Assembly (NCBI GenBank): GCA_964016885.1
Contig: OZ024758.1
Span: 32,054,001-32,118,000, forward strand
Direction of reading: 5' to 3'
DNA: 64,000 bases
Source: Eledone cirrhosa
Lineage: Eukaryota
Shown: in pieces, positions 3,910-51,030 of the stretch
How positions within the stretch are numbered: the first letter of the stretch is position 1
Layout: each line of letters starts with the position of its first letter
Notes under the pieces: model-generated
The model's input: the letters and a program-made list of their open reading frames with translations, nothing else
Told to the model about the DNA's origin: nothing
Databases searched by the model: none
Translations under genes and position numbers: made by a program

Positions 3910-4087
3910 AAATGTAAGTATGTATGTATACGTACATACATATATGTATACAGACGTACAGTAGTATGTATATATATACATAGATGCACACATATATATA
4001 TGTGTGCATGTATGTATGTATATACATACTACTGTACGTCTGTATACATATATGTATGTACGTATACATACATACATACTTACATTT
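3910..4087. repeat. imperfect foldback inverted repeat of TA/CA-rich sequence
   Basis: aaatgtaagtatgtatgtatacgtacatacatatatgtatacagacgtacagtagtatg is mirrored by catactactgtacgtctgtatacatatatgtatgtacgtatac...tacttacattt. It abuts the LINE 5' truncation point. Confidence 0.75.
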
Positions 4088-4088: not shown

Positions 4089-4728
4089 ACGGTACTGAAA
4101 TATGCAGATGACATCAAGCTGTACCTTGAAATCAAAAGGACTGATCCTGAAATCTACAACTCTTTCCTACAATCAGACCTGGACACAATGCAGCAATGGA
4201 TCACAGACTGGCAACTGAAGCTGGACAAGTGTACCACCATACATTTTGGGAGGAAAAATCCAGCGTCCACATACTCCCTCTACAACACTGATATCAAGAA
4301 GTCCTCTTGTGAACGTGACCTGGGCATTACTGTCAGCAGAAATTTGCGTTGGACAAAGCATGTCTCTAAGATTGTCAAGAAGGCCCAGAGTGTCTTGGCA
4401 TCACTCAGCAAGACCTTTGTTAGCCGCTCTCCAGCCATCTATTTAAAACTGTATACAGCTATGGTACGACCACACTTGGAATTCGCATCATCAGTCTGGA
4501 ACCCCTATCTTGCTCAGAACATTGACCTCATGGAAACTGTTCAGAGACGTGCAACCAAGCGCATACCCTCCATCAGACACCTACCATACTCTGAACGCCT
4601 TGCTTCCCTGGGCATGGATTCATTGAAGCTCCGACGTCTGGCAATGGACTTGGTAAATACCCACAAAGTTATTAACCATCTCGCCAATTGCAACCCTGAG
4701 CACCTTTTTGATCTCCATGTGTCTAACA
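4089..4728 (+). mobile_element. CR1-group LINE, 5'-truncated ORF2 (RT C-terminal part), left flank of the viral insert
   Basis: YADDIKLY...ERDLGITV...LYTAMVRPHLEFASSVWNPY...ETVQRRATK. Nearly identical to the copy at 42898-43536. Confidence 0.9.
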
Positions 4729-4808
4729 GTGATTATCCCATTCCCACCCCTTTCGTCTATAATACAATGTAATAATAATCCGATGGTGTGGGAATGGGAT
4801 AATCACTG
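4727..4808. repeat. stem-loop at the left edge of the viral insert (candidate terminal hairpin/origin)
   Basis: cagtgattatcccattcccac (4727-4747) is the exact reverse complement of gtgggaatgggataatcactg (4788-4808). The loop is 40 nt. Confidence 0.85.
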
Positions 4809-4900
4809 CTGACCATTGATCACACTGGTATAAGAGGTGCCTGGTATAGTATTTTTAACCGATGACAGCGATGTGGTTTGATAGTTAACTAAAATCTCCC

Positions 4901-4934
4901 TATATAATAAGAAAAATATCGTAAAACCATCAGT
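4901..4934 (+). promoter_or_regulatory. putative VP core promoter: TATA box + TCAGT initiator immediately before the VP ATG
   Basis: TATATAA at 4901-4907 and TCAGT at 4930-4934 (~30 nt spacing), with ATG at 4935. A direct repeat ctggtata occurs at 4825 and 4841. Confidence 0.65.
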
Positions 4935-6779
4935 ATGCCGAGTACTCGCAAACGGAAGAAGCCTCCCGAAGAGAAACCAGGACCATCAAAGGAATATCAC
5001 GCACCAGGATACGATTTCCTTGGCCCAGGTACTGATATCAAAAAGAAAAAATATTGGGTACCACGTAATAAGCTAGACCAAGCAGCCAAAGAACACGATA
5101 TCGCCTATGAAAATAAAGACATCAGAACCTGGTACGCAGATAAAAAATTCATCGGAGAGGCTGTTAAATCCGGACCTACAGGTATACTCGCAGCAGCAGC
5201 AATCGGAGCTAAGCATTATCTGGGACTCGATTCATATTTTCGAGGTTGTCCTACCGATACTGTTGATTCTTGCGGGGCTGCTACTATGGCTGGGATGGAG
5301 ACGGACGCGGAGACTGAGAGAGCTGATGGAGGAGGTGGATGGACGGGTACACAACATGGTTCATCCGCCCAAATACCTACCCCGACTGGACCCTATCAAA
5401 GAGAGGTTACATTTACAAGAAAATTCCTTAATGTAGTTAAATCTCAGAATATGAACACTGCAACGGGAACATTTACGAGTATCAAACAGGCCGGAGATAA
5501 CCAACCCAAAATCAAAGATCTCATGACAAGAGGAGTCTGTAAATCGCAGGACTTCCTGGTTCCCTATTGGTTAACTACATGGGTTAAACCAATCGAATGG
5601 GAGGCGCAATTGAGTATGGCTACATCGTATCGTGTTAAAGATATGGGATTTAAGATATCAAACATAACATGCTCAGAGTGGATAGTAGCGAGAGGAGAAG
5701 ACCAATTCATCAACAATCCATTACCATATTTCCAAATATATATAGACAGAGGAAAGTATATTGGATACAACAATCTAAGAGGGATATCACATATACCAAA
5801 CGATGGCTTCCAACTCATACATCCCACTACTGTTAACGACCTACTATTACCAACATACGAATACTTTTACATGTGTAATAAACAAGTATTACTGGATATG
5901 GGACAAACATTTGAAAACGATGCGACAACTATAGAAATGCGAAAGCTACACGACTGGAGAGGATTATATGATGTCAAAGAGATTCGGCAAGGTGATACTT
6001 TCGTACATCGATGGCGCAACCATTCACAATTAACACATCCTCTCACCAATACAGAATGGAACGGAAATGTAATAATGCACGGTAATATACTAAACAGCGG
6101 AAAGTTTGCTAACAATCATCATCAAGCTGTAGGTAGTATATTAACTGGAGATGGAGGTCTAAATGTTACATCAGCGCCATATGGAGGAACATCATTCGAA
6201 AAAGGAGCCGGATGGTTAGATTATCAAAACCCCAGGACAATAACCCGATTAGGATGGATGGAGGATAACGCAATGACTGAATATAACGAAATGGGAATGA
6301 ACTACCAATGTATCAGAGAATCGACCACGGTACCCGGCGATTATGAGGGTGCCTCGGGAATATACACCGTGGCAAACAGAACACTAATAAATAACGTTTT
6401 GTACACGTCAGAAGACCCGCCAGAGATGATACTGATTAACGTACCAGTGAAAGTTAACGGTAATAATACACTGCAGACATTAATGTTTCAAATGGAAATT
6501 GAATACTTTATGACGATTGAGGCAGATTACGATCAACTGAACCACCCACAAATAATACAAACAACCAATGTAAATGCGTCACGTATGCAAAACACAGACA
6601 AGGAATATAGATACGATCTTCATAGTGTAACCGATCCTGGCAGACACTTTCATGGACACAGAGTCAAACACGCACAACACGGCAGAACTTTAGACGTGGG
6701 CGATAAAGATAGTCCTTATATTTATAAGGACTATCTTTATCGCCCACGTCTAAAGTTCTGCCGTGTTGTGCGTGTTTGA
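4935..6779 (+). CDS. VP1: parvovirus-like capsid protein VP1 with N-terminal phospholipase A2 domain
   Basis: Uninterrupted 614-aa ORF. Basic NLS-like TRKRKK, PLA2 Ca-loop PGYDFLGPGT, catalytic DQAAKEHDIAY, Gly-rich DGGGGWTG after a second Met in strong context (actATGg, 5286), and jelly-roll-like YRVKDMGFKISNI. Confidence 0.88.
   Translation: MPSTRKRKKPPEEKPGPSKEYHAPGYDFLGPGTDIKKKKYWVPRNKLDQAAKEHDIAYENKDIRTWYADKKFIGEAVKSGPTGILAAAAIGAKHYLGLDSYFRGCPTDTVDSCGAATMAGMETDAETERADGGGGWTGTQHGSSAQIPTPTGPYQREVTFTRKFLNVVKSQNMNTATGTFTSIKQAGDNQPKIKDLMTRGVCKSQDFLVPYWLTTWVKPIEWEAQLSMATSYRVKDMGFKISNITCSEWIVARGEDQFINNPLPYFQIYIDRGKYIGYNNLRGISHIPNDGFQLIHPTTVNDLLLPTYEYFYMCNKQVLLDMGQTFENDATTIEMRKLHDWRGLYDVKEIRQGDTFVHRWRNHSQLTHPLTNTEWNGNVIMHGNILNSGKFANNHHQAVGSILTGDGGLNVTSAPYGGTSFEKGAGWLDYQNPRTITRLGWMEDNAMTEYNEMGMNYQCIRESTTVPGDYEGASGIYTVANRTLINNVLYTSEDPPEMILINVPVKVNGNNTLQTLMFQMEIEYFMTIEADYDQLNHPQIIQTTNVNASRMQNTDKEYRYDLHSVTDPGRHFHGHRVKHAQHGRTLDVGDKDSPYIYKDYLYRPRLKFCRVVRV
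5107..5436 (+). CDS. putative overlapping (+1 frame) small membrane protein
   Basis: 109-aa ATG-initiated ORF inside VP with a hydrophobic segment IFEVVLPILLILAGLLLWLGW followed by RRTRR. Expression is unproven. Confidence 0.4.
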   Translation: MKIKTSEPGTQIKNSSERLLNPDLQVYSQQQQSELSIIWDSIHIFEVVLPILLILAGLLLWLGWRRTRRLRELMEEVDGRVHNMVHPPKYLPRLDPIKERLHLQENSLM

Positions 6780-6788
6780 CTCTGTGTC
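6655..6788. repeat. perfect 66-bp-arm palindrome (2-nt loop) between VP and NS1; candidate parvoviral telomere
   Basis: 6655-6720 gacacagagtc...agtccttata is the exact reverse complement of 6723-6788 tataaggact...gactctgtgtc. Confidence 0.92.
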
Positions 6789-6840
6789 AGGAGCGGCCAC
6801 TTCGTTAACAAGTAAGATTGTAACTTACAACTGAACGGAC

Positions 6841-8290
6841 ATGGACCAAGATCAGAAGCAGAAGTTCAACGACGAATTCTTTAATGACGCCACCAACATC
6901 AAGGGAACCACGGCCTACACTTGGGTCTACAGATGGCAAGAACCTAATGAGTTTACGTGGGCGGAGATAAATCTATTCAAGAGACCGTCTGAGACTATAA
7001 ATTATAAACCATTCAAAGAAGAACATTCGCTACTTTTCAGACTGTTGTGTACATTCACATCTATTGTTGTCTACCACCCTAAAGGACCTTCACGTATAAA
7101 ACATTGCGACGATGTGGATCACTTTCACATCATATCTTGGCATACGTCTCACCCAACTAATCAACACAGCTTTCTTAAGCTAAAAAGACTGTTACAAATG
7201 AACGATCCTAAACACCAATATGAGATGAAGGCGGCCAAAATTGAATCACCAGCTGGCTTTGCCGAATACCTACAAAAATATGACGTCATAGCTTGCAATG
7301 ATATCAAAACAACAGGGCAGAGAAAGATGTTAGCAACCATAACTAAGCAAGAGATGATGTCAGTACCGGTAGAGGATACAACCACTAACATTAAGACAAA
7401 CGATACAGTACGTGGCAACAAATTTAATTTCGTGAAAGACCTAATGAGCAAGTGCAACTCAACAGATCTTGGCGACATTATAAATTTCGTTTGTACTATC
7501 GGTAAAGACAAGTACGGACATGCATGGGACTCTGTCTATAGAAACACTCCTAATCTTTCATCACTACTACAACCAGCAGCAACCCAACTACAAATAGAAA
7601 ACCGGATCACGCCCATATGGGAGCAGATACAGGAGAAAAGACTAATGCTTGGCAGCGATGGTAATAGGTATTGGACTGTAAACACAAGTCTTGCGATATA
7701 TGAACAATGGTGTGCATTTCACCAGATTAATCATGTAAGATTTGCGAAGGACCTGTTTGACGTGTGTCACAAAATCCTACCGAAAAAAAAACAGTCTACA
7801 TATCACCGGAATACCAAACAGCGGCAAAAGTTATCTCCTAAGGAGTATTAGAAATGGACTTATGAACTGTGGCAGAATGCGATGCCAGGCCAGTGATAAT
7901 TTTACATTTGGGACCTGTATCGATAAAACACTAATATTTACCGATGAAATGTGGTTCACGAACATAAACATAGAAGAGGCGAAATGTATACTAGAAGGTA
8001 CTGAGACGTATGTCAATATTAAACATCAGCAAGAACGCATTCTGCACAGAACACCATGCATAAGTACTGGAAATTCGAACCCATGGGATAGAGTGATGCA
8101 AGATGAAAAAGCGTTAAGAGCAAGAATGTTCATCTACACTACCAACTCGGAGATGATAAAACTGAAAGAATGGGGACAAAAGGAGTTAAATCCTATGATG
8201 TGGTTGACTATATGGAGAGATTACATAAAGGAATACACTGCATCCTTTAAAACCCTCATGCTTCCCGAAATACGCCAAAACTACACCTGA
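6841..8290 (+). CDS. NS1: parvovirus-like NS1/Rep (HUH endonuclease + SF3 helicase); one +1 frameshift in an A9 run; last 17 aa LINE-derived
   Basis: HUH motif DHFHIISW and tyrosine motif EYLQK. After removing one A at 7783-7791 it reads PKKNSLHITGIPNSGKS (Walker A), LIFTDE (Walker B), AKCILEG...VNIKH (B'), PCISTGN (C) and ALRAR (Arg finger). Repaired length is 482 aa. Confidence 0.88.
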
Positions 8291-8432
8291 TGTACCCCTT
8301 CCATACACATGCACACATGTGTGTATCATGACTCGTGCACTGTTCATTTTCCTGATGTTTGTGCATTGCCCTATGTACTGTACATGCACTTTTTGATGAG
8401 TTGTGGTGCACCTGGGCACTGTACACAATATT

Positions 8433-8488
<56 letters not shown>

Positions 8489-8609
8489 ATATCATGACTC
8501 ATACACTGTTCATTTTCCTGACATTTGTACATTGTTCTGTGTACTATACATGCACCTTTGATGAGTTGTAGTGCACCTGAGCACTGAACACAATAATTTC
8601 ATTATTATT

Positions 8610-8610
<1 letters not shown>
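8235..8610 (+). mobile_element. CR1-group LINE 3' end (ORF2 C-terminus, 3' UTR, (ATT)n tail, partial 3' UTR duplication), right flank of the viral insert
   Basis: acactgcatcctttaaaaccctcatgcttcccgaaatacgccaaaactacacctga... matches 43660-43859 and the minus-strand copy at 9430-9840. Confidence 0.9.
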
Positions 8611-8644
<34 letters not shown>

Positions 8645-8902: not shown

Positions 8903-9429
8903 GTAGTTAGGGAAGCAGAAAATTGCTTTTTGTGATCCAGTTCGTGGTTAAGAAAGCCAGTTTCATGGATGGTTTCAACGTATGGTTAGGGGTACCTCCA
9001 CAAGTTTGTAAGAATTCCGTTCATTCTTGGAGTATAAAGTATAAAAGAGAAAACACAGGTAAGCATTAAGAGAAGGATTTTATCCAGGTATTTACGACCG
9101 TTTCAGTGGTAAGTGCAACCTTATATTGGTATACTGCAAAAAAAATCCTTCTCTTAATGCTTACCTATGTTTTCTCTTTTATACTATATATATATGTATG
9201 TGCGTGCGTATGTACGTGTACATGTGCGTATGTGTGTGTATGTGTATATTTGTATATATAAGTAATTTTTTATATATATGTGTGTATGTGGTTGAATGTA
9301 TTTTTTCTCATGTATATGTGTGCGTGAATGTATTTATATTTTTTGATATATGTATATACACCAACATTTGTGTATATGTGTGTGTATGCATGTGAGTATG
9401 TATATGTGTGCATTGTGTGTGTATATATA

Positions 9430-9840
9430 ATAATAATAATAATAATAATGAAATTATTGTGTACAGTGCTCAGGTGCACTACAACTCATCAAAGGTGCAT
9501 GTATAGTACATAGAATAATGTACAAATGTCAGGAAAATGAACAGTGTATGAGTCATGATATAATAATGATAACAATAATGAAATATTGTGTACAGTGCCC
9601 AGGTGCACCACAACTCATCAAAAAAGTGCATGTACAGTACATAGGGCAATGCACAAACATCAGTAAAATGAACAGTGCACGAGTCATGATACACACATGT
9701 GTGCATGTGTATGGAAGGGATACATCAGGTGTAGTTTTGGCGTATTTCGGGAAGCATGAGTGTCTTAAAGGATGCAGTGTCTCGGCAGCTAACAATTGAC
9801 TCAGGCAGTTTGTTCCATGCTTCAGCAACTCTGAGCGTGA
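9430..9840 (-). mobile_element. CR1-group LINE 3' fragment
   Basis: Encodes ...AWNKLPESIVSCRDTASFKTLMLPEIRQNYT* plus the same 3' UTR and (ATT)n tail as 8235-8610, in inverted orientation. Confidence 0.85.
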
Positions 9841-10501: not shown

Positions 10502-10507
<6 letters not shown>

Positions 10508-11766
10508 GATAAATCTACCAAGAGTTTACGGTAGTGTCCAATCCGTATGAAGAACTCAATGTATTCCGGATATCATGGAAAGAAGAGATGTAATGAAAAT
10601 CCACTTTCGGTGAAAGATAAACGGTATACAGAGTCAAGATAAAATATTAAACAAATAATGAACAAACAATTCCTTATATTAAACAAAAAAAGTTCACTAT
10701 TTAACGATCGTTTCTAGGGCATATATGTGTTATAATTGGTATGCATATTTAACAGATCTATGTACAAAATTATACAAAATTATACAAATTATCAAGATTA
10801 AATATACATACCTAACTCATATATACGCCGTCTTCAGAAATAATGAAGTATATTTATTGATAATAACAACAATTCAAAATATCAGTTCAAAATTGACCAA
10901 TGAAAACACAAAGGGTTAAAAGCAGTTTGGTGTGTGTATATATATGTAAAAACCTTACACATATTTTACAATAATGTGTGTATAATTTGTATGTGTATAC
11001 TAAAAAGATGGATGTAAACACAAAATTTCAAGGTTAATATCTCTGTAAGCTTAATGCGCTGATAAGATACGCAAAGATACTTATGGAGTCAAGCATATAA
11101 ATATATTTTTTTCATACTCACACATATCAGTATAATCACATATACATGTGCGTATATGCATAAATATACACATAACCACGAACATACAAACACACACACT
11201 CCCCCACTCACATTTATATATGCGGATATAAAATCATAAGCAAATAGAAATTAAGTCACTCACATAAAACACTGGTACACACATTTCAAGATCAAGATAC
11301 AGAAATTAGGTGGGAGGGGGGGGGAGGGGTCAGTATTAGATTGTCAGACCAGACAGCCTAAAATAAATGTATCTATAAATTAAGAAAAATAAAAAAATAA
11401 AACCAATAAAATATAATAAATGTACATACACATACAGATATACATACACATACATACATGTACGCGCACATAGAGATATCTACACATACATACATACACA
11501 CATACCTATATTGTCATACACACACATACATTTACACGAACATACACATACACATATAAAAAGATATAAATACACACACACTCACGCGCAACACATACAC
11601 ACATACACATATATATATATATATATATATACATATACACATACACATATATATACACACACACATAGACTCATATATATATATATACACATATACATAC
11701 ACATATATATACAAACATATATATCCCCACACTCATACCACCATAAATATATATACAAACACCCAC

Positions 11767-11804
<38 letters not shown>

Positions 11805-12218
11805 CCACATACACACACATACACATATATATATATATATATATACACACACATACACACACATATATATATATATACACACACATATATATATATACAC
11901 ACACATATAAAAAACAGACATGCACATACATATATACATATACATACATATATTTCATTACCCTTATATATACACACAGTATATATACATACACAACCTC
12001 ACTTATACACATATACACATAAGTTATATTACAATAATAATAAAGAATAATATATATATATATATATACATATATACACACGTATATATATATACATATA
12101 CATATATATATACATACACACATACATACACATACATACATACACCTAAACATATATATATACACATAAATACACACGTACGAATAAAGACATATATTCA
12201 CACATAGACACATATATA

Positions 12219-12249
<31 letters not shown>

Positions 12250-13844
12250 ATCTATATATATACACATACATACATACATACATATACATACATATATACA
12301 CACATACACACACACACACACACACAGACACACATACACACTCACATATATATATATATATATATATATATGTGTATGTGAGTGTGCGCAAATACATATA
12401 TATATACACACACACATACAAACACACACAAACACATACATATGCATATATGCACACACACACACATATATCACATAGATACGAAGATAAACATATAAAT
12501 AGAGAGACATACGAATATATACAGAACCCATATACACATACATACAACCACGCATATACATATACATACATATATACACACATATATATTCCTATATACA
12601 AGCATACACATACATACACATATATACATACACATACACATATACTTACCACACATTCACATACACATACATATATAATATACATATATATACATACATA
12701 TACATACACATGTATGTACAATCATATATACACACTCAATCTTACATTCATATTTACATGCTCATATATGTATTTTTATATTTAGAAATAAAAACCTATA
12801 TAGACACCCTCCTACACATATATTCATACATATACTCTTACAAACACAGATGATAATAGTATGGGGGAAAGGGGGGGTTTGGAGAAGGGGATCAAAGTAA
12901 ATATATGTTTCAAGAAACATATAATATTTTCCGTATCTTAATTCAATGTATGTTCTTACATATTTTCAGTGCTAGGAAATGCGAAATCTATGCATCCCAA
13001 AATAAAAAAGTATACCATTAATCATATGTTAACTAAACCAAAGATAGTCAACATATTGATTTCCAAGGTGTAAATTAGTTAGGTTTATAATATTTGAAGC
13101 AAAATTATGAAGTCAAACAGTAGTAGATTATTAATTACATTATAACTAAATTAAAGTTAATAACGTTATGGTATCAATATTAGGAGATGAATTTAGTAAT
13201 AGGGAAAAGAAACCCAAATAAAAATAAAATAAAGTATTACATCAGTAGTAGCATATAAATTATATGTTAACTAAATTAAAAATTATATATTTATTTCAAT
13301 AGTATATGTTAATTAGTATATGTTAATTAGGTATACAATACATAAAGCAGATATTGTATTTCATCAATAGCATAATATAATTATATGCAAATAAAAATCA
13401 AAATTAATACGCATACATATACATATACATACACATACACATACATATACATATACACACATATATATATATATATACATATATATACACATACATACAT
13501 ATATATTCACATAAATATACATACAGGTACACATACAATACACACATATACATATACATATAGATATACAAATCTTTTTCAAAAAATTGCACAGAATATA
13601 TTAACTAGGTATATATCCAAAACACATCCCATTCTATGATTACATGACATTCTGCAATTCGTCTGTACAAGGATACTAATTTTAAGCAAATTAAAATTAA
13701 AGTTTTAGGTTGATTAAAACTAAAACCAAATAATAAATATATTTCCAAAATGTATATTAATTAGGTCTATAATACTAAAAATTCTTTCTCCGTCATAGGA
13801 TACAAGATATTATTTTGTTATATTTTATCTGTAAAAGAATTATA

Positions 13845-13880
<36 letters not shown>

Positions 13881-16222
13881 ATAATAAAAGGTTAAAATAA
13901 ATTAAAATTAATCTATAAATTAAATTACTGAGTATATATTGGTAATATTTAAAGGTTTTTCAAAATTTATTATTACAAAATATTTTCTCATCTGTAATAA
14001 AATATTAATTAAATTAAATTTATATGTTAACTAACATTTAAATTAAATTAAATTCTAGAATAATGTTATTAATTAGGTTTATAATATTTAAATGTTTTTT
14101 TTAGTTTATGATTACACGATATAATTAATTCCTGTCTTTTATTTAATAAGATATCCCTAGACTTCATTATTTCAAATAGTTCTTGGGAACATAATCTACA
14201 TTCCTTTCTATTATTTTGATAAGGGGTGGCTCTTTTGAGCACACTCCAGGTCAAATCATATTTTATATTTTTATTTTTATAACTATTTATTTTTTCTGCT
14301 AGAGATGTTGTATTAGCCAGTGCAGCATTTTTAAAGCTATGTTTGTGGGTATTATACCTTGTCTTAAAATTGTTAGAGGTAGCTCCTATATATGAGCAAA
14401 TAGAATCTTTAGTTTTAACATTACATTTATAGACTATGTTGTTAACAAGACAATTCCCTTTTAATGGGCAGTTTGTTTTGTTTCTACAGTTACATCCTTT
14501 CGTTAATTCTGTATTTGAGGAGATATTATTGTTAATTTGATGTACTGGTGGTATACTTATGGTTTTCTTACATTTATATGCATTATATGCACTTATATTT
14601 TGTTTTATGTTATTTGTTGTAGAGTATGAGAATTTAACTGTAGACCTATTTAAGATTTGATGGTATTTGTGGTTTGGCGGGAAGTTTTTCTCAAGGATAT
14701 AAAAAAATTTTTTAGCAATATTATCCTTAACTTGTAAATTAAAAGGAGCATTATACCAAGTAACTCGTCTATTACGGTTTCTATGTTGTTTATTATTTTT
14801 ATTATTTTTATATGTTGTATCATGATTTTTACTAGGAGGATTAATGTTAATGATCTCACCACAACTATTTTTAGTTATATTTGTAGATTTAGGTGTTTTA
14901 TCTTTTTTATTAGGAGTTTTATTATTAATATTTATTATAGTCGTATGATGAGTAGTTTTTTGAGGGTTACTATACTTTATATTAGAAGATTTAGTATTTT
15001 GGGGTATACTGTGGGTGGCATTTAGGTGTGTACTTTTCATTTGGCGTTTGTTGGTAATATTATGCTGTATGCTTTCAGTATTTTTAGTAGAAGGTATATA
15101 CTCTAATCTATTTTTGTGGCCACTTCTATCTAGAGCTTCATTATAAAAGGTCGCATTTTTATCAAATACATCTTGGTTAGAAGAAAGGTTAGAAATTCTA
15201 AGTGATATATTATATGCAAGGTTTTTAAGGATAGATTTAGGGTGATTAGATTGTGAGTGTATGTAATGTAAGTTTTGGTTAGGTTTATGGTAAGGTTGGT
15301 ATATACCCGTAGCTAAATCTAAAGTTATATCTAGGAAATTTACTACTTTACTTGTTTTTTCAAAAGTAATATTAAGATTATAATAGTCTTTAAGGAAAGT
15401 TCTAATATGCTTTTTGTTTTTTTCGATTTCTGAAAGGCTAAGGTTGTTAGAAAGAAGAAGACAGTCATCACGATATAAACCACCTTTGAGGTGGGGAAAA
15501 GAGGCATTTATGTTGAAAAGGAGAAAGAGGCCCACAAGATCAGTAATTTGGGCGGAATCGCTTGAACCCATAGTAATATCAAAAAGATTACTGTAAGTGT
15601 TTCTGGTCCAGTACTCATTCTGAAATTCAATAAGTGTTTGTCTAGCATGTATAATAATGTTAATGTCATCCGAAGTTAAATTAGATCTATTTTTAGCAAA
15701 TATTAATGCTTTGTTCAGGAGTATGGGTGATATAGAAGAATAGTAATTATCTATATCAAATTGTATGAAAGAAGTAGAAGATTTACACCTAATATTTTTA
15801 AACCAATTAATTACCTGGGAGGTGTTTTCCCAGAGTGGTAAAATAACGTATTTTCTTATTTGTGGGATGACTCTATCTAAAATTTTTTTGCTAATTATTC
15901 CAATATCTGATTTGGAGGGACATATAAGTCTAATAGAAGGATTAGAGTTAAAGTTAGATTTGTGATCTTTCAGGTTGAAGTGTGGACTTTTCAAAGCCAA
16001 AGGTTCAGTTCTATCTTCAATATTTAGTTTTTTTACTATGTTGTGTGTTTTGTTGTTGATGTTGGTGAGTGACACATTATTAGATTTTTTATAACTTTTT
16101 CTGAGTTCTTTATATATGAACTCATTATAATGTTCAATATCCATATGATACAAGTTACCAGTTTTGTCCGAGTGGACATGGATTTTTTTAGACTTTTTTA
16201 GGTCCAATAGGGTAGAATCAAG
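10502..16222 (-). mobile_element. Naiad-like Penelope element, copy A (5'-truncated, inverted)
   Basis: Reverse complement of the 21593-27185 unit plus ~140 bp of the next unit. Contains the RT+GIY-YIG ORF 14069-16207 and a ~3.5-kb microsatellite-rich 3' region. Confidence 0.9.
14069..16207 (-). CDS. Penelope-like RT + GIY-YIG endonuclease (N-terminally truncated, otherwise open, 712 aa)
   Basis: SDKTGNLY, RLICPSKSDIG, FIQFDIDNYYSSI, FDITMGSSDSAQITDLVGLF, GLYRDD, NFLDITLDL, CNCRNKTNCPLKGNC, IVYKC...SYIGAT, CRLC, SCNH. Confidence 0.88.
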   Translation of the reverse strand: MDLKKSKKIHVHSDKTGNLYHMDIEHYNEFIYKELRKSYKKSNNVSLTNINNKTHNIVKKLNIEDRTEPLALKSPHFNLKDHKSNFNSNPSIRLICPSKSDIGIISKKILDRVIPQIRKYVILPLWENTSQVINWFKNIRCKSSTSFIQFDIDNYYSSISPILLNKALIFAKNRSNLTSDDINIIIHARQTLIEFQNEYWTRNTYSNLFDITMGSSDSAQITDLVGLFLLFNINASFPHLKGGLYRDDCLLLSNNLSLSEIEKNKKHIRTFLKDYYNLNITFEKTSKVVNFLDITLDLATGIYQPYHKPNQNLHYIHSQSNHPKSILKNLAYNISLRISNLSSNQDVFDKNATFYNEALDRSGHKNRLEYIPSTKNTESIQHNITNKRQMKSTHLNATHSIPQNTKSSNIKYSNPQKTTHHTTIININNKTPNKKDKTPKSTNITKNSCGEIININPPSKNHDTTYKNNKNNKQHRNRNRRVTWYNAPFNLQVKDNIAKKFFYILEKNFPPNHKYHQILNRSTVKFSYSTTNNIKQNISAYNAYKCKKTISIPPVHQINNNISSNTELTKGCNCRNKTNCPLKGNCLVNNIVYKCNVKTKDSICSYIGATSNNFKTRYNTHKHSFKNAALANTTSLAEKINSYKNKNIKYDLTWSVLKRATPYQNNRKECRLCSQELFEIMKSRDILLNKRQELIISCNHKLKKTFKYYKPN

Positions 16223-17771
16223 AAATCGAAAAAAACAAAAAGCATATTAGAACTTTCCTTAAAGACTATTATAATCTTAATATTACTTTTGAAAAAACAA
16301 GTAAAGTAGTAAATTTCCTAGATATAACTTTAGATTTAGCTACGGGTATATACCAACCTTACCATAAACCTAACCAAAACTTACATTACATACACTCACA
16401 ATCTAATCACCCTAAATCTATCCTTAAAAACCTTGCATATAATATATCACTTAGAATTTCTAACCTTTCTTCTAACCAAGATGTATTTGATAAAAATGCG
16501 ACCTTTTATAATGAAGCTCTAGATAGAAGTGGCCACAAAAATAGATTAGAGTATATACCTTCTACTAAAAATACTGAAAGCATACAGCATAATATTACCA
16601 ACAAACGCCAAATGAAAAGTACACACCTAAATGCCACCCACAGTATACCCCAAAATACTAAATCTTCTAATATAAAGTATAGTAACCCTCAAAAAACTAC
16701 TCATCATACGACTATAATAAATATTAATAATAAAACTCCTAATAAAAAAGATAAAACACCTAAATCTACAAATATAACTAAAAATAGTTGTGGTGAGATC
16801 ATTAACATTAATCCTCCTAGTAAAAATCATGATACAACATATAAAAATAATAAAAATAATAAACAACATAGAAACCGTAATAGACGAGTTACTTGGTATA
16901 ATGCTCCTTTTAATTTACAAGTTAAGGATAATATTGCTAAAAAATTTTTTTATATCCTTGAGAAAAACTTCCCGCCAAACCACAAATACCATCAAATCTT
17001 AAATAGGTCTACAGTTAAATTCTCATACTCTACAACAAATAACATAAAACAAAATATAAGTGCATATAATGCATATAAATGTAAGAAAACCATAAGTATA
17101 CCACCAGTACATCAAATTAACAATAATATCTCCTCAAATACAGAATTAACGAAAGGATGTAACTGTAGAAACAAAACAAACTGCCCATTAAAAGGGAATT
17201 GTCTTGTTAACAACATAGTCTATAAATGTAATGTTAAAACTAAAGATTCTATTTGCTCATATATAGGAGCTACCTCTAACAATTTTAAGACAAGGTATAA
17301 TACCCACAAACATAGCTTTAAAAATGCTGCACTGGCTAATACAACATCTCTAGCAGAAAAAATAAATAGTTATAAAAATAAAAATATAAAATATGATTTG
17401 ACCTGGAGTGTGCTCAAAAGAGCCACCCCTTATCAAAATAATAGAAAGGAATGTAGATTATGTTCCCAAGAACTATTTGAAATAATGAAGTCTAGGGATA
17501 TCTTATTAAATAAAAGACAGGAATTAATTATATCGTGTAATCATAAACTAAAAAAAACATTTAAATATTATAAACCTAATTAATAACATTATTCTAGAAT
17601 TTAATTTAATTTAAATGTTAGTTAACATATAAATTTAATTTAATTAATATTTTATTACAGATGAGAAAATATTTTGTAATAATAAATTTTGAAAAACCTT
17701 TAAATATTACCAATATATACTCAGTAATTTAATTTATAGATTAATTTTAATTTATTTTAACCTTTTATTAT

Positions 17772-17807
<36 letters not shown>

Positions 17808-19402
17808 TATAATTCTTTTACAGATAAAATATAACAAAATAATATCTTGTATCCTATGACGGAGAAAGAATTTTTAGTATTATAGACCTAATTAATATAC
17901 ATTTTGGAAATATATTTATTATTTGGTTTTAGTTTTAATCAACCTAAAACTTTAATTTTAATTTGCTTAAAATTAGTATCCTTGTACAGACGAATTGCAG
18001 AATGTCATGTAATCATAGAATGGGATGTGTTTTGGATATATACCTAGTTAATATATTCTGTGCAATTTTTTGAAAAAGATTTGTATATCTATATGTATAT
18101 GTATATGTGTGTATTGTATGTGTACCTGTATGTATATTTATGTGAATATATATGTATGTATGTGTATATATATGTATATATATATATATATGTGTGTATA
18201 TGTATATGTATGTGTATGTGTATGTATATGTATATGTATGCGTATTAATTTTGATTTTTATTTGCATATAATTATATTATGCTATTGATGAAATACAATA
18301 TCTGCTTTATGTATTGTATACCTAATTAACATATACTAATTAACATATACTATTGAAATAAATATATAATTTTTAATTTAGTTAACATATAATTTATATG
18401 CTACTACTGATGTAATACTTTATTTTATTTTTATTTGGGTTTCTTTTCCCTATTACTAAATTCATCTCCTAATATTGATACCATAACGTTATTAACTTTA
18501 ATTTAGTTATAATGTAATTAATAATCTACTACTGTTTGACTTCATAATTTTGCTTCAAATATTATAAACCTAACTAATTTACACCTTGGAAATCAATATG
18601 TTGACTATCTTTGGTTTAGTTAACATATGATTAATGGTATACTTTTTTATTTTGGGATGCATAGATTTCGCATTTCCTAGCACTGAAAATATGTAAGAAC
18701 ATACATTGAATTAAGATACGGAAAATATTATATGTTTCTTGAAACATATATTTACTTTGATCCCCTTCTCCAAACCCCCCCTTTCCCCCATACTATTATC
18801 ATCTGTGTTTGTAAGAGTATATGTATGAATATATGTGTAGGAGGGTGTCTATATAGGTTTTTATTTCTAAATATAAAAATACATATATGAGCATGTAAAT
18901 ATGAATGTAAGATTGAGTGTGTATATATGATTGTACATACATGTGTATGTATATGTATGTATATATATGTATATTATATATGTATGTGTATGTGAATGTG
19001 TGGTAAGTATATGTGTATGTGTATGTATATATGTGTATGTATGTGTATGCTTGTATATAGGAATATATATGTGTGTATATATGTATGTATATGTATATGC
19101 GTGGTTGTATGTATGTGTATATGGGTTCTGTATATATTCGTATGTCTCTCTATTTATATGTTTATCTTCGTATCTATGTGATATATGTGTGTGTGTGTGC
19201 ATATATGCATATGTATGTGTTTGTGTGTGTTTGTATGTGTGTGTGTATATATATATGTATTTGCGCACACTCACATACACATATATATATATATATATAT
19301 ATATATGTGAGTGTGTATGTGTGTCTGTGTGTGTGTGTGTGTGTGTATGTGTGTATATATGTATGTATATGTATGTATGTATGTATGTGTATATATATAG
19401 AT

Positions 19403-19433
<31 letters not shown>

Positions 19434-19847
19434 TATATATGTGTCTATGTGTGAATATATGTCTTTATTCGTACGTGTGTATTTATGTGTATATATATAT
19501 GTTTAGGTGTATGTATGTATGTGTATGTATGTGTGTATGTATATATATATGTATATGTATATATATATACGTGTGTATATATGTATATATATATATATAT
19601 ATTATTCTTTATTATTATTGTAATATAACTTATGTGTATATGTGTATAAGTGAGGTTGTGTATGTATATATACTGTGTGTATATATAAGGGTAATGAAAT
19701 ATATGTATGTATATGTATATATGTATGTGCATGTCTGTTTTTTATATGTGTGTGTATATATATATATGTGTGTGTATATATATATATATGTGTGTGTATG
19801 TGTGTGTATATATATATATATATATATGTGTATGTGTGTGTATGTGG

Positions 19848-19885
<38 letters not shown>

Positions 19886-21150
19886 GTGGGTGTTTGTATA
19901 TATATTTATGGTGGTATGAGTGTGGGGATATATATGTTTGTATATATATGTGTATGTATATGTGTATATATATATATATGAGTCTATGTGTGTGTGTATA
20001 TATATGTGTATGTGTATATGTATATATATATATATATATATATGTGTATGTGTGTATGTGTTGCGCGTGAGTGTGTGTGTATTTATATCTTTTTATATGT
20101 GTATGTGTATGTTCGTGTAAATGTATGTGTGTGTATGACAATATAGGTATGTGTGTATGTATGTATGTGTAGATATCTCTATGTGCGCGTACATGTATGT
20201 ATGTGTATGTATATCTGTATGTGTATGTACATTTATTATATTTTATTGGTTTTATTTTTTTATTTTTCTTAATTTATAGATACATTTATTTTAGGCTGTC
20301 TGGTCTGACAATCTAATACTGACCCCCCCCCCCCCCTCCCACCTAATTTCTGTATCTTGATCTTGAAATGTGTGTACCAGTGTTTTATGTGAGTGACTTA
20401 ATTTCTATTTGCTTATGATTTTATATCCGCATATATAAATGTGAGTGGGGGAGTGTGTGTGTTTGTATGTTCGTGGTTATGTGTATATTTATGCATATAC
20501 GCACATGTATATGTGATTATACTGATATGTGTGAGTATGAAAAAAATATATTTATATGCTTGACTCCATAAGTATCTTTGCGTATCTTATCAGCGCATTA
20601 AGCTTACAGAGATATTAACCTTGAAATTTTGTGTTTACATCCATCTTTTTAGTATACACATACAAATTATACACACATTATTGTAAAATATGTGTAAGGT
20701 TTTTACATATATATACACACACCAAACTGCTTTTAACCCTTTGTGTTTTCATTGGTCAATTTTGAACTGATATTTTGAATTGTTGTTATTATCAATAAAT
20801 ATACTTCATTATTTCTGAAGACGGCGTATATATGAGTTAGGTATGTATATTTAATCTTGATAATTTGTATAATTTTGTATAATTTTGTACATAGATCTGT
20901 TAAATATGCATACCAATTATAACACATATATGCCCTAGAAACGATCGTTAAATAGTGAACTTTTTTTGTTTAATATAAGGAATTGTTTGTTCATTATTTG
21001 TTTAATATTTTATCTTGACTCTGTATACCGTTTATCTTTCACCGAAAGTGGATTTTCATTACATCTCTTCTTTCCATGATATCCGGAATACATTGAGTTC
21101 TTCATACGGATTGGACACTACCGTAAACTCTTGGTAGATTTATCTACATA
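16221..21150 (+). mobile_element. Naiad-like Penelope element, copy B (5'-truncated within RT), in tandem with copy C
   Basis: Starts at agaaatcgaaaaaaac (equivalent to 22384). Includes ORF 16612-17583 and the 3' region. Mirror image of 10502-15431. Confidence 0.9.
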
Positions 21151-23934
21151 ATTTTGCTCCTATTTTCACGGAAATATTCGTATTTTTGTACTGTATGTGT
21201 GTATTAATTTTATATTTATGTATAAACATTTATATATATGTATGATTTTGTAAACCCATATACATTTAGTTGAGCTCTTTCAATTGTCCATCATCCATAT
21301 CACAATGGAAAAACAATATTTAGGAACCTCCTTAAAAAACATACCAATACCTTCTAAGGACGACTTCTTACTCCTTATGATTCAGAAAACTAATAATTTT
21401 ATCAGAAGGGTTAGATGGAGAGCCTACCACTTCGATAGAAAATCTAAACAGGCAGATCGGAAATATATGTATGATTTCAACACTTACAAGAATCCACCAC
21501 ACAACTTTTTACTTGAAGACTTCGAGAAAGACCTTTTTAATTTAATTAAACACCTCAAATTTAAAAAGTATAAATCCGTCTTTCAAAAGGACCTTGATTC
21601 TACCCTATTGGACCTAAAAAAGTCTAAAAAAATCCATGTCCACTCGGACAAAACTGGTAACTTGTATCATATGGATATTGAACATTATAATGAGTTCATA
21701 TATAAAGAACTCAGAAAAAGTTATAAAAAATCTAATAATGTGTCACTCACCAACATCAACAACAAAACACACAACATAGTAAAAAAACTAAATATTGAAG
21801 ATAGAACTGAACCTTTGGCTTTGAAAAGTCCACACTTCAACCTGAAAGATCACAAATCTAACTTTAACTCTAATCCTTCTATTAGACTTATATGTCCCTC
21901 CAAATCAGATATTGGAATAATTAGCAAAAAAATTTTAGATAGAGTCATCCCACAAATAAGAAAATACGTTATTTTACCACTCTGGGAAAACACCTCCCAG
22001 GTAATTAATTGGTTTAAAAATATTAGGTGTAAATCTTCTACTTCTTTCATACAATTTGATATAGATAATTACTATTCTTCTATATCACCCATACTCCTGA
22101 ACAAAGCATTAATATTTGCTAAAAATAGATCTAATTTAACTTCGGATGACATTAACATTATTATACATGCTTGACAAACACTTATTGAATTTCAGAATGA
22201 GTACTGGACCAGAAACACTTACAGTAATCTTTTTGATATTACTATGGGTTCAAGCGATTCCGCCCAAATTACTGATCTTGTGGGCCTCTTTCTCCTTTTC
22301 AACATAAATGCCTCTTTTCCCCACCTCAAAGGTGGTTTATATCGTGATGACTGTCTTCTTCTTTCTAACAACCTTAGCCTTTCAGAAATCGAAAAAAACA
22401 AAAAGCATATTAGAACTTTCCTTAAAGACTATTATAATCTTAATATTACTTTTGAAAAAACAAGTAAAGTAGTAAATTTCCTAGATATAACTTTAGATTT
22501 AGCTACGGGTATATACCAACCTTACCATAAACCTAACCAAAACTTACATTACATACACTCACAATCTAATCACCCTAAATCTATCCTTAAAAACCTTGCA
22601 TATAATATATCACTTAGAATTTCTAACCTTTCTTCTAACCAAGATGTATTTGATAAAAATGCGACCTTTTATAATGAAGCTCTAGATAGAAGTGGCCACA
22701 AAAATAGATTAGAGTATATACCTTCTACTAAAAATACTGAAAGCATACAGCATAATATTACCAACAAACGCCAAATGAAAAGTACACACCTAAATGCCAC
22801 CCACAGTATACCCCAAAATACTAAATCTTCTAATATAAAGTATAGTAACCCTCAAAAAACTACTCATCATACGACTATAATAAATATTAATAATAAAACT
22901 CCTAATAAAAAAGATAAAACACCTAAATCTACAAATATAACTAAAAATAGTTGTGGTGAGATCATTAACATTAATCCTCCTAGTAAAAATCATGATACAA
23001 CATATAAAAATAATAAAAATAATAAACAACATAGAAACCGTAATAGACGAGTTACTTGGTATAATGCTCCTTTTAATTTACAAGTTAAGGATAATATTGC
23101 TAAAAAATTTTTTTATATCCTTGAGAAAAACTTCCCGCCAAACCACAAATACCATCAAATCTTAAATAGGTCTACAGTTAAATTCTCATACTCTACAACA
23201 AATAACATAAAACAAAATATAAGTGCATATAATGCATATAAATGTAAGAAAACCATAAGTATACCACCAGTACATCAAATTAACAATAATATCTCCTCAA
23301 ATACAGAATTAACGAAAGGATGTAACTGTAGAAACAAAAAAAACTGCCCATTAAAAGGGAATTGTCTTGTTAACAACATAGTCTATAAATGTAATGTTAA
23401 AACTAAAGATTCTATTTGCTCATATATAGGAGCTACCTCTAACAATTTTAAGACAAGGTATAATACCCACAAACATAGCTTTAAAAATGCTGCACTGGCT
23501 AATACAACATCTCTAGCAGAAAAAATAAATAGTTATAAAAATAAAAATATAAAATATGATTTGACCTGGAGTGTGCTCAAAAGAGCCACCCCTTATCAAA
23601 ATAATAGAAAGGAATGTAGATTATGTTCCCAAGAACTATTTGAAATAATGAAGTCTAGGGATATCTTATTAAATAAAAGACAGGAATTAATTATATCGTG
23701 TAATCATAAACTAAAAAAAACATTTAAATATTATAAACCTAATTAATAACATTATTCTAGAATTTAATTTAATTTAAATGTTAGTTAACATATAAATTTA
23801 ATTTAATTAATATTTTATTACAGATGAGAAAATATTTTGTAATAATAAATTTTGAAAAACCTTTAAATATTACCAATATATACTCAGTAATTTAATTTAT
23901 AGATTAATTTTAATTTATTTTAACCTTTTATTAT

Positions 23935-23975
<41 letters not shown>

Positions 23976-25444
23976 TATAATTCTTTTACAGATAAAATAT
24001 AACAAAATAATATCTTGTATCCTATGACGGAGAAAGAATTTTTAGTATTATAGACCTAATTAATATACATTTTGGAAATATATTTATTATTTGGTTTTAG
24101 TTTTAATCAACCTAAAACTTTAATTTTAATTTGCTTAAAATTAGTATCCTTGTACAGACGAATTGCAGAATGTCATGTAATCATAGAATGGGATGTGTTT
24201 TGGATATATACCTAGTTAATATATTCTGTGCAATTTTTTGAAAAAGATTTGTATATCTATATGTATATGTATATGTGTGTATTGTATGTGTACCTGTATG
24301 TATATTTATGTGAATATATATGTATGTATGTGTATATATATGTATATATATATATATATGTGTGTATATGTATATGTATGTGTATGTGTATGTATATGTA
24401 TATGTATGCGTATTAATTTTGATTTTTATTTGCATATAATTATATTATGCTATTGATGAAATACAATATCTGCTTTATGTATTGTATACCTAATTAACAT
24501 ATACTAATTAACATATACTATTGAAATAAATATATAATTTTTAATTTAGTTAACATATAATTTATATGCTACTACTGATGTAATACTTTATTTTATTTTT
24601 ATTTGGGTTTCTTTTCCCTATTACTAAATTCATCTCCTAATATTGATACCATAACGTTATTAACTTTAATTTAGTTATAATGTAATTAATAATCTACTAC
24701 TGTTTGACTTCATAATTTTGCTTCAAATATTATAAACCTAACTAATTTACACCTTGGAAATCAATATGTTGACTATCTTTGGTTTAGTTAACATATGATT
24801 AATGGTATACTTTTTTATTTTGGGATGCATAGATTTCGCATTTCCTAGCACTGAAAATATGTAAGAACATACATTGAATTAAGATACGGAAAATATTATA
24901 TGTTTCTTGAAACATATATTTACTTTGATCCCCTTCTCCAAACCCCCCCTTTCCCCCATACTATTATCATCTGTGTTTGTAAGAGTATATGTATGAATAT
25001 ATGTGTAGGAGGGTGTCTATATAGGTTTTTATTTCTAAATATAAAAATACATATATGAGCATGTAAATATGAATGTAAGATTGAGTGTGTATATATGATT
25101 GTACATACATGTGTATGTATATGTATGTATATATATGTATATTATATATGTATGTGTATGTGAATGTGTGGTAAGTATATGTGTATGTGTATGTATATAT
25201 GTGTATGTATGTGTATGCTTGTATATAGGAATATATATGTGTGTATATATGTATGTATATGTATATGCGTGGTTGTATGTATGTGTATATGGGTTCTGTA
25301 TATATTCGTATGTCTCTCTATTTATATGTTTATCTTCGTATCTATGTGATATATGTGTGTGTGTGTGCATATATGCATATGTATGTGTTTGTGTGTGTTT
25401 GTATGTGTGTGTGTATATATATATGTATTTGCGCACACTCACAT

Positions 25445-25479
<35 letters not shown>

Positions 25480-25572
25480 AGTGTGTATGTGTGTCTGTGT
25501 GTGTGTGTGTGTGTGTATGTGTGTATATATGTATGTATATGTATGTATGTATGTATGTGTATATATATAGAT

Positions 25573-25603
<31 letters not shown>

Positions 25604-26017
25604 TATATATGTGTCTATGTGTGAATATATGTCTTTATTCGTACGTGTGTATTTATGTGTATATATATATGTTTAGGTGTATGTATGTATGTGTATGTAT
25701 GTGTGTATGTATATATATATGTATATGTATATATATATACGTGTGTATATATGTATATATATATATATATATTATTCTTTATTATTATTGTAATATAACT
25801 TATGTGTATATGTGTATAAGTGAGGTTGTGTATGTATATATACTGTGTGTATATATAAGGGTAATGAAATATATGTATGTATATGTATATATGTATGTGC
25901 ATGTCTGTTTTTTATATGTGTGTGTATATATATATATGTGTGTGTATATATATATATATGTGTGTGTATGTGTGTGTATATATATATATATATATATGTG
26001 TATGTGTGTGTATGTGG

Positions 26018-26055
<38 letters not shown>

Positions 26056-27180
26056 GTGGGTGTTTGTATATATATTTATGGTGGTATGAGTGTGGGGATA
26101 TATATGTTTGTATATATATGTGTATGTATATGTGTATATATATATATATGAGTCTATGTGTGTGTGTATATATATGTGTATGTGTATATGTATATATATA
26201 TATATATATATATGTGTATGTGTGTATGTGTTGCGCGTGAGTGTGTGTGTATTTATATCTTTTTATATGTGTATGTGTATGTTCGTGTAAATGTATGTGT
26301 GTGTATAACAATATAGGTATGTGTGTATGTATGTATGTGTAGATATCTCTATGTGCGCGTACATGTATGTATGTGTATGTATATCTGTATGTGTATGTAC
26401 ATTTATTATATTTTATTGGTTTTATTTTTTTATTTTTCTTAATTTATAGATACATTTATTTTAGGCTGTCTGGTCTGACAATCTAATACTGACCCCTCCC
26501 CCCCCCCCCCCTCCCACCTAATTTCTGTATCTTGATCTTGAAATGTGTGTACCAGTGTTTTATGTGAGTGACTTAATTTCTATTTGCTTATGATTTTATA
26601 TCCGCATATATAAATGTGAGTGGGGGAGTGTGTGTGTTTGTATGTTCGTGGTTATGTGTATATTTATGCATATACGCACATGTATATGTGATTATACTGA
26701 TATGTGTGAGTATGAAAAAAATATATTTATATGCTTGACTCCATAAGTATCTTTGCGTATCTTATCAGCGCATTAAGCTTACAGAGATATTAACCTTGAA
26801 ATTTTGTGTTTACATCCATCTTTTTAGTATACACATACAAATTATACACACATTATTGTAAAATATGTGTAAGGTTTTTACATATATATACACACACCAA
26901 ACTGCTTTTAACCCTTTGTGTTTTCATTGGTCAATTTTGAACTGATATTTTGAATTGTTGTTATTATCAATAAATATACTTCATTATTTCTGAAGACGGC
27001 GTATATATGAGTTAGGTATGTATATTTAATCTTGATAATTTGTATAATTTTGTATAATTTTGTACATAGATCTGTTAAATATGCATACCAATTATAACAC
27101 ATATATGCCCTAGAAACGATCGTTAAATAGTGAACTTTTTTTGTTTAATATAAGGAATTGTTTGTTCATTATTTGTTTAA

Positions 27181-27185
<5 letters not shown>
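21151..27185 (+). mobile_element. Naiad-like Penelope element, copy C (complete ORF region + 3' region)
   Basis: Tandem period with copy B is ~6.17 kb (17583 vs 23746; 20927 vs 27102). It ends in a (TA)n tract. The B/C boundary is nominal because the copies are contiguous. Confidence 0.9.
21305..23746 (+). pseudogene. full-length PLE polyprotein (~813 aa) with one premature stop
   Basis: N-terminal SLKNIPIPSK...FIRRVRWRA followed by RT and GIY-YIG. In-frame TGA at 22172-22174 where copy A has AGA (Arg, 15641-15643 on the minus strand). Confidence 0.85.
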
Positions 27186-30508: not shown

Positions 30509-30624
30509 ATAGGAACCAGTAAGACCCCGACAGCTGAGCTCAAGCCGTTTCGACGGCTAATTCTGGCCAGAATTAGCCGTCGAAACGGCTTGAGCTCAGC
30601 TGTCGGGGTCTTACTGGTTCCTAT
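30509..30624. repeat. perfect loopless palindrome, 58-bp arms
   Basis: ataggaaccagtaagaccccgacagctgagctcaagccgtttcgacggctaattctgg|ccagaattagccgtcgaaacgg...ggttcctat. The left arm is related to 57470-57528. Confidence 0.9.
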
Positions 30625-38335: not shown

Positions 38336-38390
<55 letters not shown>

Positions 38391-38392
<2 letters not shown>

Positions 38393-38470
38393 ATATAAGA
38401 TCAAAAGATGGTTAAAGGAGTTCCAATAAAATACATGGAACTCCTTTAACCATCTTTTGATCTTATATTA
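38391..38470. repeat. perfect hairpin, 35-bp arms, 10-nt loop
   Basis: taatataagatcaaaagatggttaaaggagttcca ataaaataca tggaactcctttaaccatcttttgatcttatatta. Confidence 0.9.
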
Positions 38471-38947
38471 TGTATACTCCAGTCCTACAAACTGTAGAGT
38501 GCTTCTTATCCGATATCTGCATTGCTTTATTGTACTACAATAAAACTCACCTCCTATATATATATATATATATATACATACATATATACATCAGGAGCGA
38601 AGGGTGCGTGCATGCGCTATAGAATCTTCAGTTGATCAATTGCGTTGGTTGAAGCAAGCAAAATTTTGACTGCTTACTAAATCGTAGACACATAAAAAGA
38701 TAACACACACACACACACACACACACACTAGATAACACTACATGTGGCTTTGACTGGGAGGGGCATTTAGAGGGAATTGGGGGGGGGGGGGCATCACAGC
38801 CCCACTTTTCGCCATGGCGATTGGACTGCATGCTCTGCTTTCCAGGTTACCCTTCACCACTGATATATGTATGTATATACATATATATACATATATATAT
38901 ATGTATATATATAGATATATACATTTTATACATATATATATATATAC

Positions 38948-43400: not shown

Positions 43401-43859
43401 GAACGCCTTGCTTCCCTGGGCATGGATTCATTGAAGCTCCGACGTCTGGCAATGGACTTGGTAAACACCCACAAAGTTATTAACCATGTCGCCAACAACA
43501 ACCCTGAGCACCTTTTTGATCTCCATATATCTAACACACGTGGACATGCCTACAAAATCAGAAAACAGCACAGCTCCCATGACTTTCGGAAACATTTTTT
43601 CAAGCTTAGAGTTGCTGAAGCATGGAACAAACTGCCTGCGTCAGTTGTTAGCTGCTGAGACACTGAATCCTTTAAAACCCTCATGCTTCCCGAAATTCGC
43701 CAAAACTACACCCTTCCATACACATGCAGACATGTGTATATCATGACTCATGCACTGTTCATTTTCCTGACGTTTGTACATTACCCTATGTACCATCCAT
43801 ACAGTTTTTGATGAGTTGTAGTGCACCTGAGCACTGTACACAATATTTTCATTATTATA
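40445..43859 (+). mobile_element. CR1-group LINE (ORF1 end, APE + RT ORF2, 3' UTR, ATT tail) nested in the RTE with an 11-bp target-site duplication
   Basis: LNARSL, VTETW, GVVYRPP, AGDFNHP, GDSDH, YLDFAKAFNSVPH, GVPQGSVLGPLLF, YADNIKL. TSD tgcatcagtct (40434-40444) / tgcaccagtct (43860-43870). Confidence 0.9.
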
Positions 43860-50746: not shown

Positions 50747-51030
50747 TTTGCACAATTTCAAACCGATTCAACTCAAAGTCTGTAAGAATGTTGTAAATGG
50801 TCTAACTTAGGTCAATGACTATTTATTAATTTCAAACTCGCCCACAATTACGGAAATAATTGATAAAACTAAATACATGACGCTTTACCCCTCTAATACA
50901 ATCTGATAACCTCTCTCTACTCCCCTTAAATTTCGATAAAACTACATACATGCTGCAACTTTCTCTTATATACGCTTAAACTTACAAACTTCCTTTAGGA
51001 ACGCCGAAGAAAGAAGAGAGAAAGAAATGA

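Follow-up and report, generated by a model that had tools for sequence, protein, structure and literature searches.

A perfect 134-nt palindrome at positions 6655-6788 of the window (the whole 64-kb stretch of DNA analyzed here) joins the capsid gene (VP) to the region upstream of NS1 in an endogenous parvoviral element, and is most probably a one-off fold-back inverted duplication of native capsid sequence formed at a rearrangement junction. This junction combines a left arm of native VP, a right arm that is its exact inverse, a missing native VP end and an intact NS1 start. Of the two origins offered in a preliminary description of this DNA, the snap-back product is supported, with the left arm as the native sequence and the right arm as its inverse copy, while the fusion of a viral telomere to a truncated VP is contradicted by capsid homology.

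A parvoviral element interrupts a host LINE copy

The window is A+T-rich animal DNA, rich in microsatellites and retroelements. Judging from sequence, positions ~4729-8234 (3.5 kb) are occupied by an endogenous parvoviral element with host DNA at either end; its parts follow one another as hairpin 1, VP, palindrome and NS1. Parvoviral hallmarks are present in the form of an NS1 with an SF3 helicase (PF01057) and a jelly-roll capsid with a PLA2 domain. The left flank (4089-4728, forward strand) is a host LINE copy identical at 608 of 634 positions to an uninterrupted copy at 42897-43536, and the right flank (8235-8442, forward strand) is a LINE 3' end that matches 43660-43858 at 181 of 196 positions. 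Both flanks are collinear with one LINE copy, about 123 bp of whose 3' end is replaced by the insert. The host-virus junction on the left is occupied by hairpin 1 (4727-4808), a 21-bp perfect stem with a 40-nt imperfect loop that has 2 nt (CA) in common with the LINE; it may be a second fold-back scar or a telomere remnant.

The surroundings of the insert hold further inverted structures. The LINE copy that hosts it carries a hairpin with 57-bp perfect arms (3918-4075) exactly at its 5' truncation point. To the right, two LINE 3' ends, at 8235-8628 and 9422-9780, stand in opposite orientation and form an inverted repeat of 87% identity.

VP (4935-6779, forward strand) encodes 614 aa with an N-terminal PLA2 domain (PF08398, E 6e-10) and a jelly-roll fold, and is 38% identical to its relative P0001 at 96% coverage. 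The region upstream of it (4809-4934, forward strand) contains a TATA-like element, which lies at 4901 and precedes the ATG by 34 nt. The AlphaFold model of VP has a mean pLDDT of 60.5, and its best Foldseek matches are AAV and bocavirus capsids (E ~1e-10 to 1e-8, with a TM score of only ~0.3). The model is uninformative at residues 557-614 (pLDDT <50), which is the palindrome-encoded part, and a sequence search of the PDB with VP gave a match confined to the PLA2 stretch.

NS1 (6841-8234, forward strand) has an intact start, whose position agrees with that of its closest relative, a frameshift at an A9 run (7783-7791) and a 3' end cut at the LINE junction. Its two pieces are 41% and 72% identical to P0003, and the helicase is recognized by PF01057 (E 2.5e-16); the N-terminal piece has Rep origin-binding domains as its look-alikes in the Atlas, a resemblance of low recognition value. 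All nine relatives tested extend 33-193 aa further than this NS1, and the last 18 codons of the helicase open reading frame (8235-8290) are LINE-derived, not viral. NS1 has no TATA element of its own. The 52-nt leader before it (6789-6840, forward strand) has a sense-like AT skew of +0.24.

A perfect palindrome at the end of the capsid gene

The palindrome differs from its own reverse complement at 6721-6722 alone, so that its asymmetry amounts to a 2-nt TT spacer. Its 66-bp arms, within which we found 0 mismatches, are bounded by unpaired bases at 6654 and 6789. The left arm (6655-6720, forward strand) spans VP codons 575-596, and the right arm (6723-6788, reverse strand), an inverted copy of 6655-6720, encodes an 18-aa VP tail and the stop codon (6777-6779). 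Simple repeats excepted, this is the longest perfect short-loop hairpin in the window; the number expected by chance in 64 kb is ~2e-34, and a chance origin is excluded. The DNA has a predicted folding energy of -94.5 kcal/mol (z -20), equalled by 0 of 200 shuffles. Its G+C content of 45% is similar to that of the VP gene, and it has nothing in common with the rest of the window beyond 11-mers.

These measurements bear out the geometry given in the preliminary description. The comparison with the reverse complement confirms arms of 66 bp without mismatch, a TT loop and a TATA-like axis (TATA-TT-TATA). The last ~41 VP codons and the stop had been placed inside the palindrome, which indeed begins within codon 574, and the NS1 ATG, at 6841, does lie 53 nt past the arm end. 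The absence of obvious sequence in common with hairpin 1 was also recovered, the best local match between the two being only 6 nt.

Capsid homology and strand composition identify the likely native arm

If the palindrome had been fused to a truncated VP at ~6654, similarity to other capsids should end there. Alignment with homologues shows no break at that point. We compared the window VP with seven relatives that reach the C-terminus in frame and represent six distinct C-termini (P0014 and P0146 end alike). The remaining 5 of the 12 rows of the alignment were left out, P0139 as near-identical to P0001, and P0012, P0023, P0049 and P0050 since each of them stops or changes frame ahead of the C-terminus. 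Identity was 38% (58/154 cells) over the 22 codons before the arm and 37% (36/98 cells) over codons 575-588 within the left arm. It fell to 6/55 cells over codons 589-596, which adjoin the axis and are not conserved, and to 6/75 cells in the right arm. Alignment to the closest full-length relative reaches residue 588, and the conserved His/Gly/Lys/His-Gly-Arg-Thr positions fall at codons 570-588, spanning the arm boundary. In an alignment-free test, 0 of 2000 shuffles reached the score of the left-arm peptide, while 672 of 2000 did as well as the right-arm peptide.

The wider family behaves in the same way. Among the 212 proteins fetched, 28 have plus-strand matches that reach at least position 6612; 26 of these extend to 6698-6713 and one stops at 6623, and none of the 212 aligns past 6713. 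The remaining one of the 28, the frameshifted relative P0012, is 65% identical to 6632-6682 in another reading frame, and since this match spans the boundary it provides DNA-level evidence of homology across 6654/6655. The 26 relatives comprise six distinct C-termini, all ending 20-23 aa after the conserved motif, and a common terminal motif is found in 24 of them (5 of the 6 distinct ends). The window VP lacks that ending and has 11 aa between the conserved motif and the axis.

Strand composition points the same way. The sense strands of the viral genes are A-rich, with an AT skew of about +0.24. The left arm has a skew of +0.39 and the right arm of -0.39, a value equally low in only 3 of 508 viral coding windows. 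On the basis of VP homology across the boundary and of strand composition, the left arm is native capsid sequence and the right arm a derived inverse copy. The native VP end has been lost beyond the axis, given that relatives continue for 20-23 aa after the motif, against 11 to the axis here, and that the terminal motif is absent; the right arm thus replaces about 9-12 native codons and the native stop. The non-native part of VP is only codons 597-614, its final 18 residues. Codons 589-596 are taken as native from their continuity with the arm and from the variability of this stretch among relatives. The proposal that the VP C-terminus is non-native thus holds for codons 597-614 and fails for the rest of the ~41 codons, where homology runs into the left arm. 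More generally, protein homology can reveal which arm of a palindrome is native.

A probable fold-back at a rearrangement junction

A simple series of events would account for this arrangement. A viral DNA strand would have ended ~30-40 nt short of the VP stop, and its 3' end would have paired with itself at TATA-TT-TATA, the TT acting as the spacer of a putative priming mini-hairpin. A polymerase would then have copied back ~60 nt, after which the new strand would have been released and joined to a piece carrying the NS1 leader. The beginning of that leader may itself record a further short templated patch of 8 nt, as 8 of the 9 positions in 6788-6796 agree with 6631-6639 read in reverse complement (chance 0.4%, found post hoc); a test over the whole leader was weak (145/3000). 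Extension of the inverted copy itself past 6788 yielded two weak, mutually exclusive alignments, and we rejected it.

Comparable products are known from cellular repair. Fold-back inversions of 2 to ~150 bp are described at breaks in yeast, captured with 0-5 nt of microhomology (PMC11724301), and snap-back SD-MMEJ is reported to favor primers of 3-4 nt lying <10 nt apart (PMC5728401), a preference that TATA-TT-TATA would fit. The palindrome has in common with the local fold-backs and SD-MMEJ products described in these two studies a junction-side inverted duplicate, a small spacer, a self-complementary word at the axis and an end joined elsewhere, and hairpin 1, with its stem, loop and 2-nt junction, resembles a yeast case with a 41-nt spacer. 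It differs from the yeast events in that its substrate is viral DNA, and its 66-bp arm is at the long end of the range where most of those reported are <14 bp (PMC11724301), which counts against the fold-back reading. Parvoviral replication offers a second precedent, as snapback, secondary-derivative and multiply rearranged AAV genomes have been reported (PMC9463555; PMC8235507). As in these genomes, parvoviral DNA has folded at an internal site within a multi-fragment rearrangement. The AAV snapback genomes described there retrace to an ITR, unlike the copy seen here, which breaks off at 66 nt, where the NS1 leader takes over.

Between these two settings, we lean slightly toward host end-joining at integration over the replication of a defective genome, since similar scars occur in the host DNA of the window. 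Seven of the nine hairpins with perfect arms of at least 20 bp in the window lie in host DNA. One host repeat (30509-30624) is a perfect 116-nt palindrome with no spacer, whose homologue at 57367-57528 aligns to the axis and no further; by sequence comparison it appears to have the same fold-back anatomy as the VP palindrome. The palindrome is probably without function, as the outcome is a VP open reading frame with a foreign tail, followed by an NS1 that bears a frameshift, has lost its 3' end and lacks a TATA element. On this reading it is an ordinary rearrangement scar made by an ordinary mechanism.

Alternative origins of the palindrome

We consider it quite improbable that the palindrome is a sequencing, library or assembly fold-back artefact. 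The window does contain several near-perfect inverted duplications, and its VP and NS1 are absent from a collection of 15 billion proteins. Read fold-backs typically retrace long stretches or terminate a contig. Here, the arm is just 66 bp long and gives way to viral sequence that is unique and includes an undamaged start of NS1, and a single LINE copy runs collinear with the two outer junctions of the insert. Elsewhere in the window there are palindromes whose arms have diverged (96% identity at 50747-51787), evidence that structures of this kind belong to the genome itself.

Slightly less probable still is an origin in which both arms are native, where the ITRs would reach into the 3' coding end of VP and the palindrome would be a head-to-tail ITR junction collapsed symmetrically to a 2-nt spacer. 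The right arm stands where a left ITR would be expected, 53 nt before the intact NS1 start, with a TATA-like word at 6723, and the VP fold is nearest to the capsids of Parvovirinae, which are monosense. Such an overlap would, however, require that conserved codons of the capsid also serve as promoter region for NS1 and that a deletion fell symmetrically about the axis with no more than 2 nt to spare, and the right arm is antisense in composition where the leader is sense. We know of no parvovirus with VP codons in its ITR, which counts against this origin. The closest parallel is found in tapeworm genomes, where densovirus integrations present, as here, a VP end, then a palindrome, then NS1 in host DNA, in head-to-tail NS1-VP-ITR arrays with perfect stems (PMC6880638). 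In the arrays described in that study the ITR begins 37 nt after VP, not inside it, and is a repeated element with a stem of 95-165 nt and a 37-nt loop; the palindrome here is instead single-copy and made of VP codons.

Very improbable in our judgment is a fold-back that has been kept, with read-through transcripts forming a 66-bp dsRNA hairpin as a source of small RNAs directed at the parent virus. Transcription would probably run across the palindrome, given the TATA-like element before VP and the absence of AATAAA between 6386 and 6788. Against this, all eight Rfam matches to miRNA precursors fall below the gathering score and any perfect hairpin gives such matches, while the youth of the insert accounts for the perfection of the arms.

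The chance is slightest for the fusion of an I-shaped viral telomere to a VP cut short at ~6654, with all 41 terminal codons non-native: the palindrome lies just upstream of NS1, its 134 nt fall within the 100-550 nt given for parvoviral telomeres, and I-shaped telomeres and their survival in endogenous copies are both described (PMC12297876), but in all 6 distinct relatives VP homology continues unbroken across 6654/6655 and covers the first 14-19 codons of the arm, the stem is perfect, without bubble or branch, where that source describes telomeric palindromes as imperfect, and a telomere should flank the coding region, whereas the left arm shows homology to the VP codons of relatives. Endogenous parvoviruses can thus contain perfect palindromes that are not telomeres.

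Gene order of the parent virus

VP precedes NS1 on one strand of the element, which is not the NS-left order described for the family (PMC11357303). We weighed several layouts of the parent genome, the weights being a matter of judgment. At a little under even chances, the parent was a monosense NS1-VP genome joined tail to head, as a circle or concatemer, with both telomeres lost at the palindrome junction. Such a tail-to-head junction is the most likely explanation of the VP-NS1 order, and may be compared with the head-to-tail arrays of tapeworm genomes (PMC6880638). An ambisense genome with an inverted NS half is a doubtful parent, though the inversion would account for the missing 3' end of each gene. 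Some other layout is unlikely, and a segmented genome distinctly so. Relatives' contigs of 2.0-2.6 kb suggested segmentation, but contigs of 4470 nt and 5245 nt carry a full VP relative and an NS1 relative, respectively, and segmentation was marked down on this account; taken together, the contigs of relatives (2.0-5.2 kb) weakly favor a single segment.

It is similarly improbable that the insert is collinear with a naturally VP-first parent, with hairpin 1 as the true left telomere and NS1 second on the same strand, or, in a variant, with one gene per segment. The palindrome would then be, at the same low probability, no more than a small local lesion at which the stop of VP and a little intergenic sequence were lost. 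This would take fewer events than a circular permutation, and hairpin 1 lies exactly at the host junction, 93 nt before the TATA-like element. Were it true, a cephalopod-associated lineage would have the reverse of the family's NS-left order as described in PMC11357303.

Comparison of the NS1 C-terminal tails of six relatives with the three forward frames of 4729-4934 gave, at best, a score reached by 6 of 300 shuffles (two members of one cluster) and, for the other four, by 32-246 of 300, and we did not accept the NS1-VP order from this test. Chimeras of VP and NS1, or read-through in antisense, could also betray the gene order; two of the 212 proteins were flagged in a search for them, both on weak second matches (E 0.007-0.027). 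A sigma-70 promoter scan stayed at chance level and is not applicable to a eukaryotic virus.

The layout of the genome in this lineage is a question worth following. The palindrome would matter more if relatives had a capsid-first or segmented genome, or terminal repeats that overlap capsid codons.

A young insert from a cephalopod-associated lineage

We estimated how far the insert has decayed. The 0 mismatches over 132 arm bases set a 95% upper bound of 2.2% per site on divergence, and the 0 in-frame stops in 3171 coding sites a bound of 1.9%, where the host LINE flanks diverge by 4-8% from their sister copy. By these bounds the insert appears young, having decayed by less than ~2%. The arms are no more perfect than the rest of the insert, and gene conversion is therefore not needed to explain them. 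The preliminary description had taken the perfection of the arms to imply a very recent insertion or arm-to-arm conversion; a young insert is upheld by both bounds, "very recent" overstates the case, and conversion is superfluous.

Two cephalopods, Octopus vulgaris and Sepia pharaonis, are the sources of all named relatives of the viral proteins, and a cephalopod host is therefore likely. VP directly matches CAI9735766.1 (Octopus vulgaris) at 45%, and NS1 directly matches CAE1177333.1 (Sepia pharaonis) at 64%. The relatives, P0001-P0212, make up a sizeable family in which many members are truncated or frameshifted, suggesting repeated endogenization. When bacterial and archaeal genomes were scanned for relatives whose surrounding DNA could be read, 26 pattern matches came up, of which 0 were confirmed.

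Short cephalopod sequences nearer to Parvovirinae and outside known genera have been described from Sepia officinalis (FO193416), Euprymna and Octopus vulgaris (JR446908) (PMC5013282), and the Sepia fragment given there resembles the window NS1 by eye, in a comparison made without an alignment tool. Unlike these fragments and the two named proteins, the present locus has a near-complete VP and most of NS1 together with their flanks. For taxonomy and telomere features we relied on PMC13426907 and PMC12297876. The lineage appears to be an unclassified, cephalopod-associated parvovirus whose capsid fold, as modeled, is nearest to those of vertebrate parvoviruses. We found no earlier description of such a locus in the open-access literature, which misses most subscription papers. 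The locus is worth more than its palindrome, as a young, near-complete VP and NS1 with all three junctions readable.

Other structures in the window

The region 10502-27185 contains inverted and tandem duplications of 4.9-5.6 kb, 99.7-100% identical. Within them lie reverse-transcriptase open reading frames at 14069-16246 (reverse strand), 16216-17583 and 21254-23746 (both forward strand), which we take to be Penelope-like from their appearance; a Pfam search of 14069-16204 gave no match. The structure at 50747-51787 is a 1049-bp palindrome whose 96% identical arms are separated by a 22-nt loop. Two smaller host hairpins are perfect, one at 38390-38471 with 36-bp arms and a 10-nt loop, and the other at 60084-60147 with 29-bp arms and a 6-nt loop.
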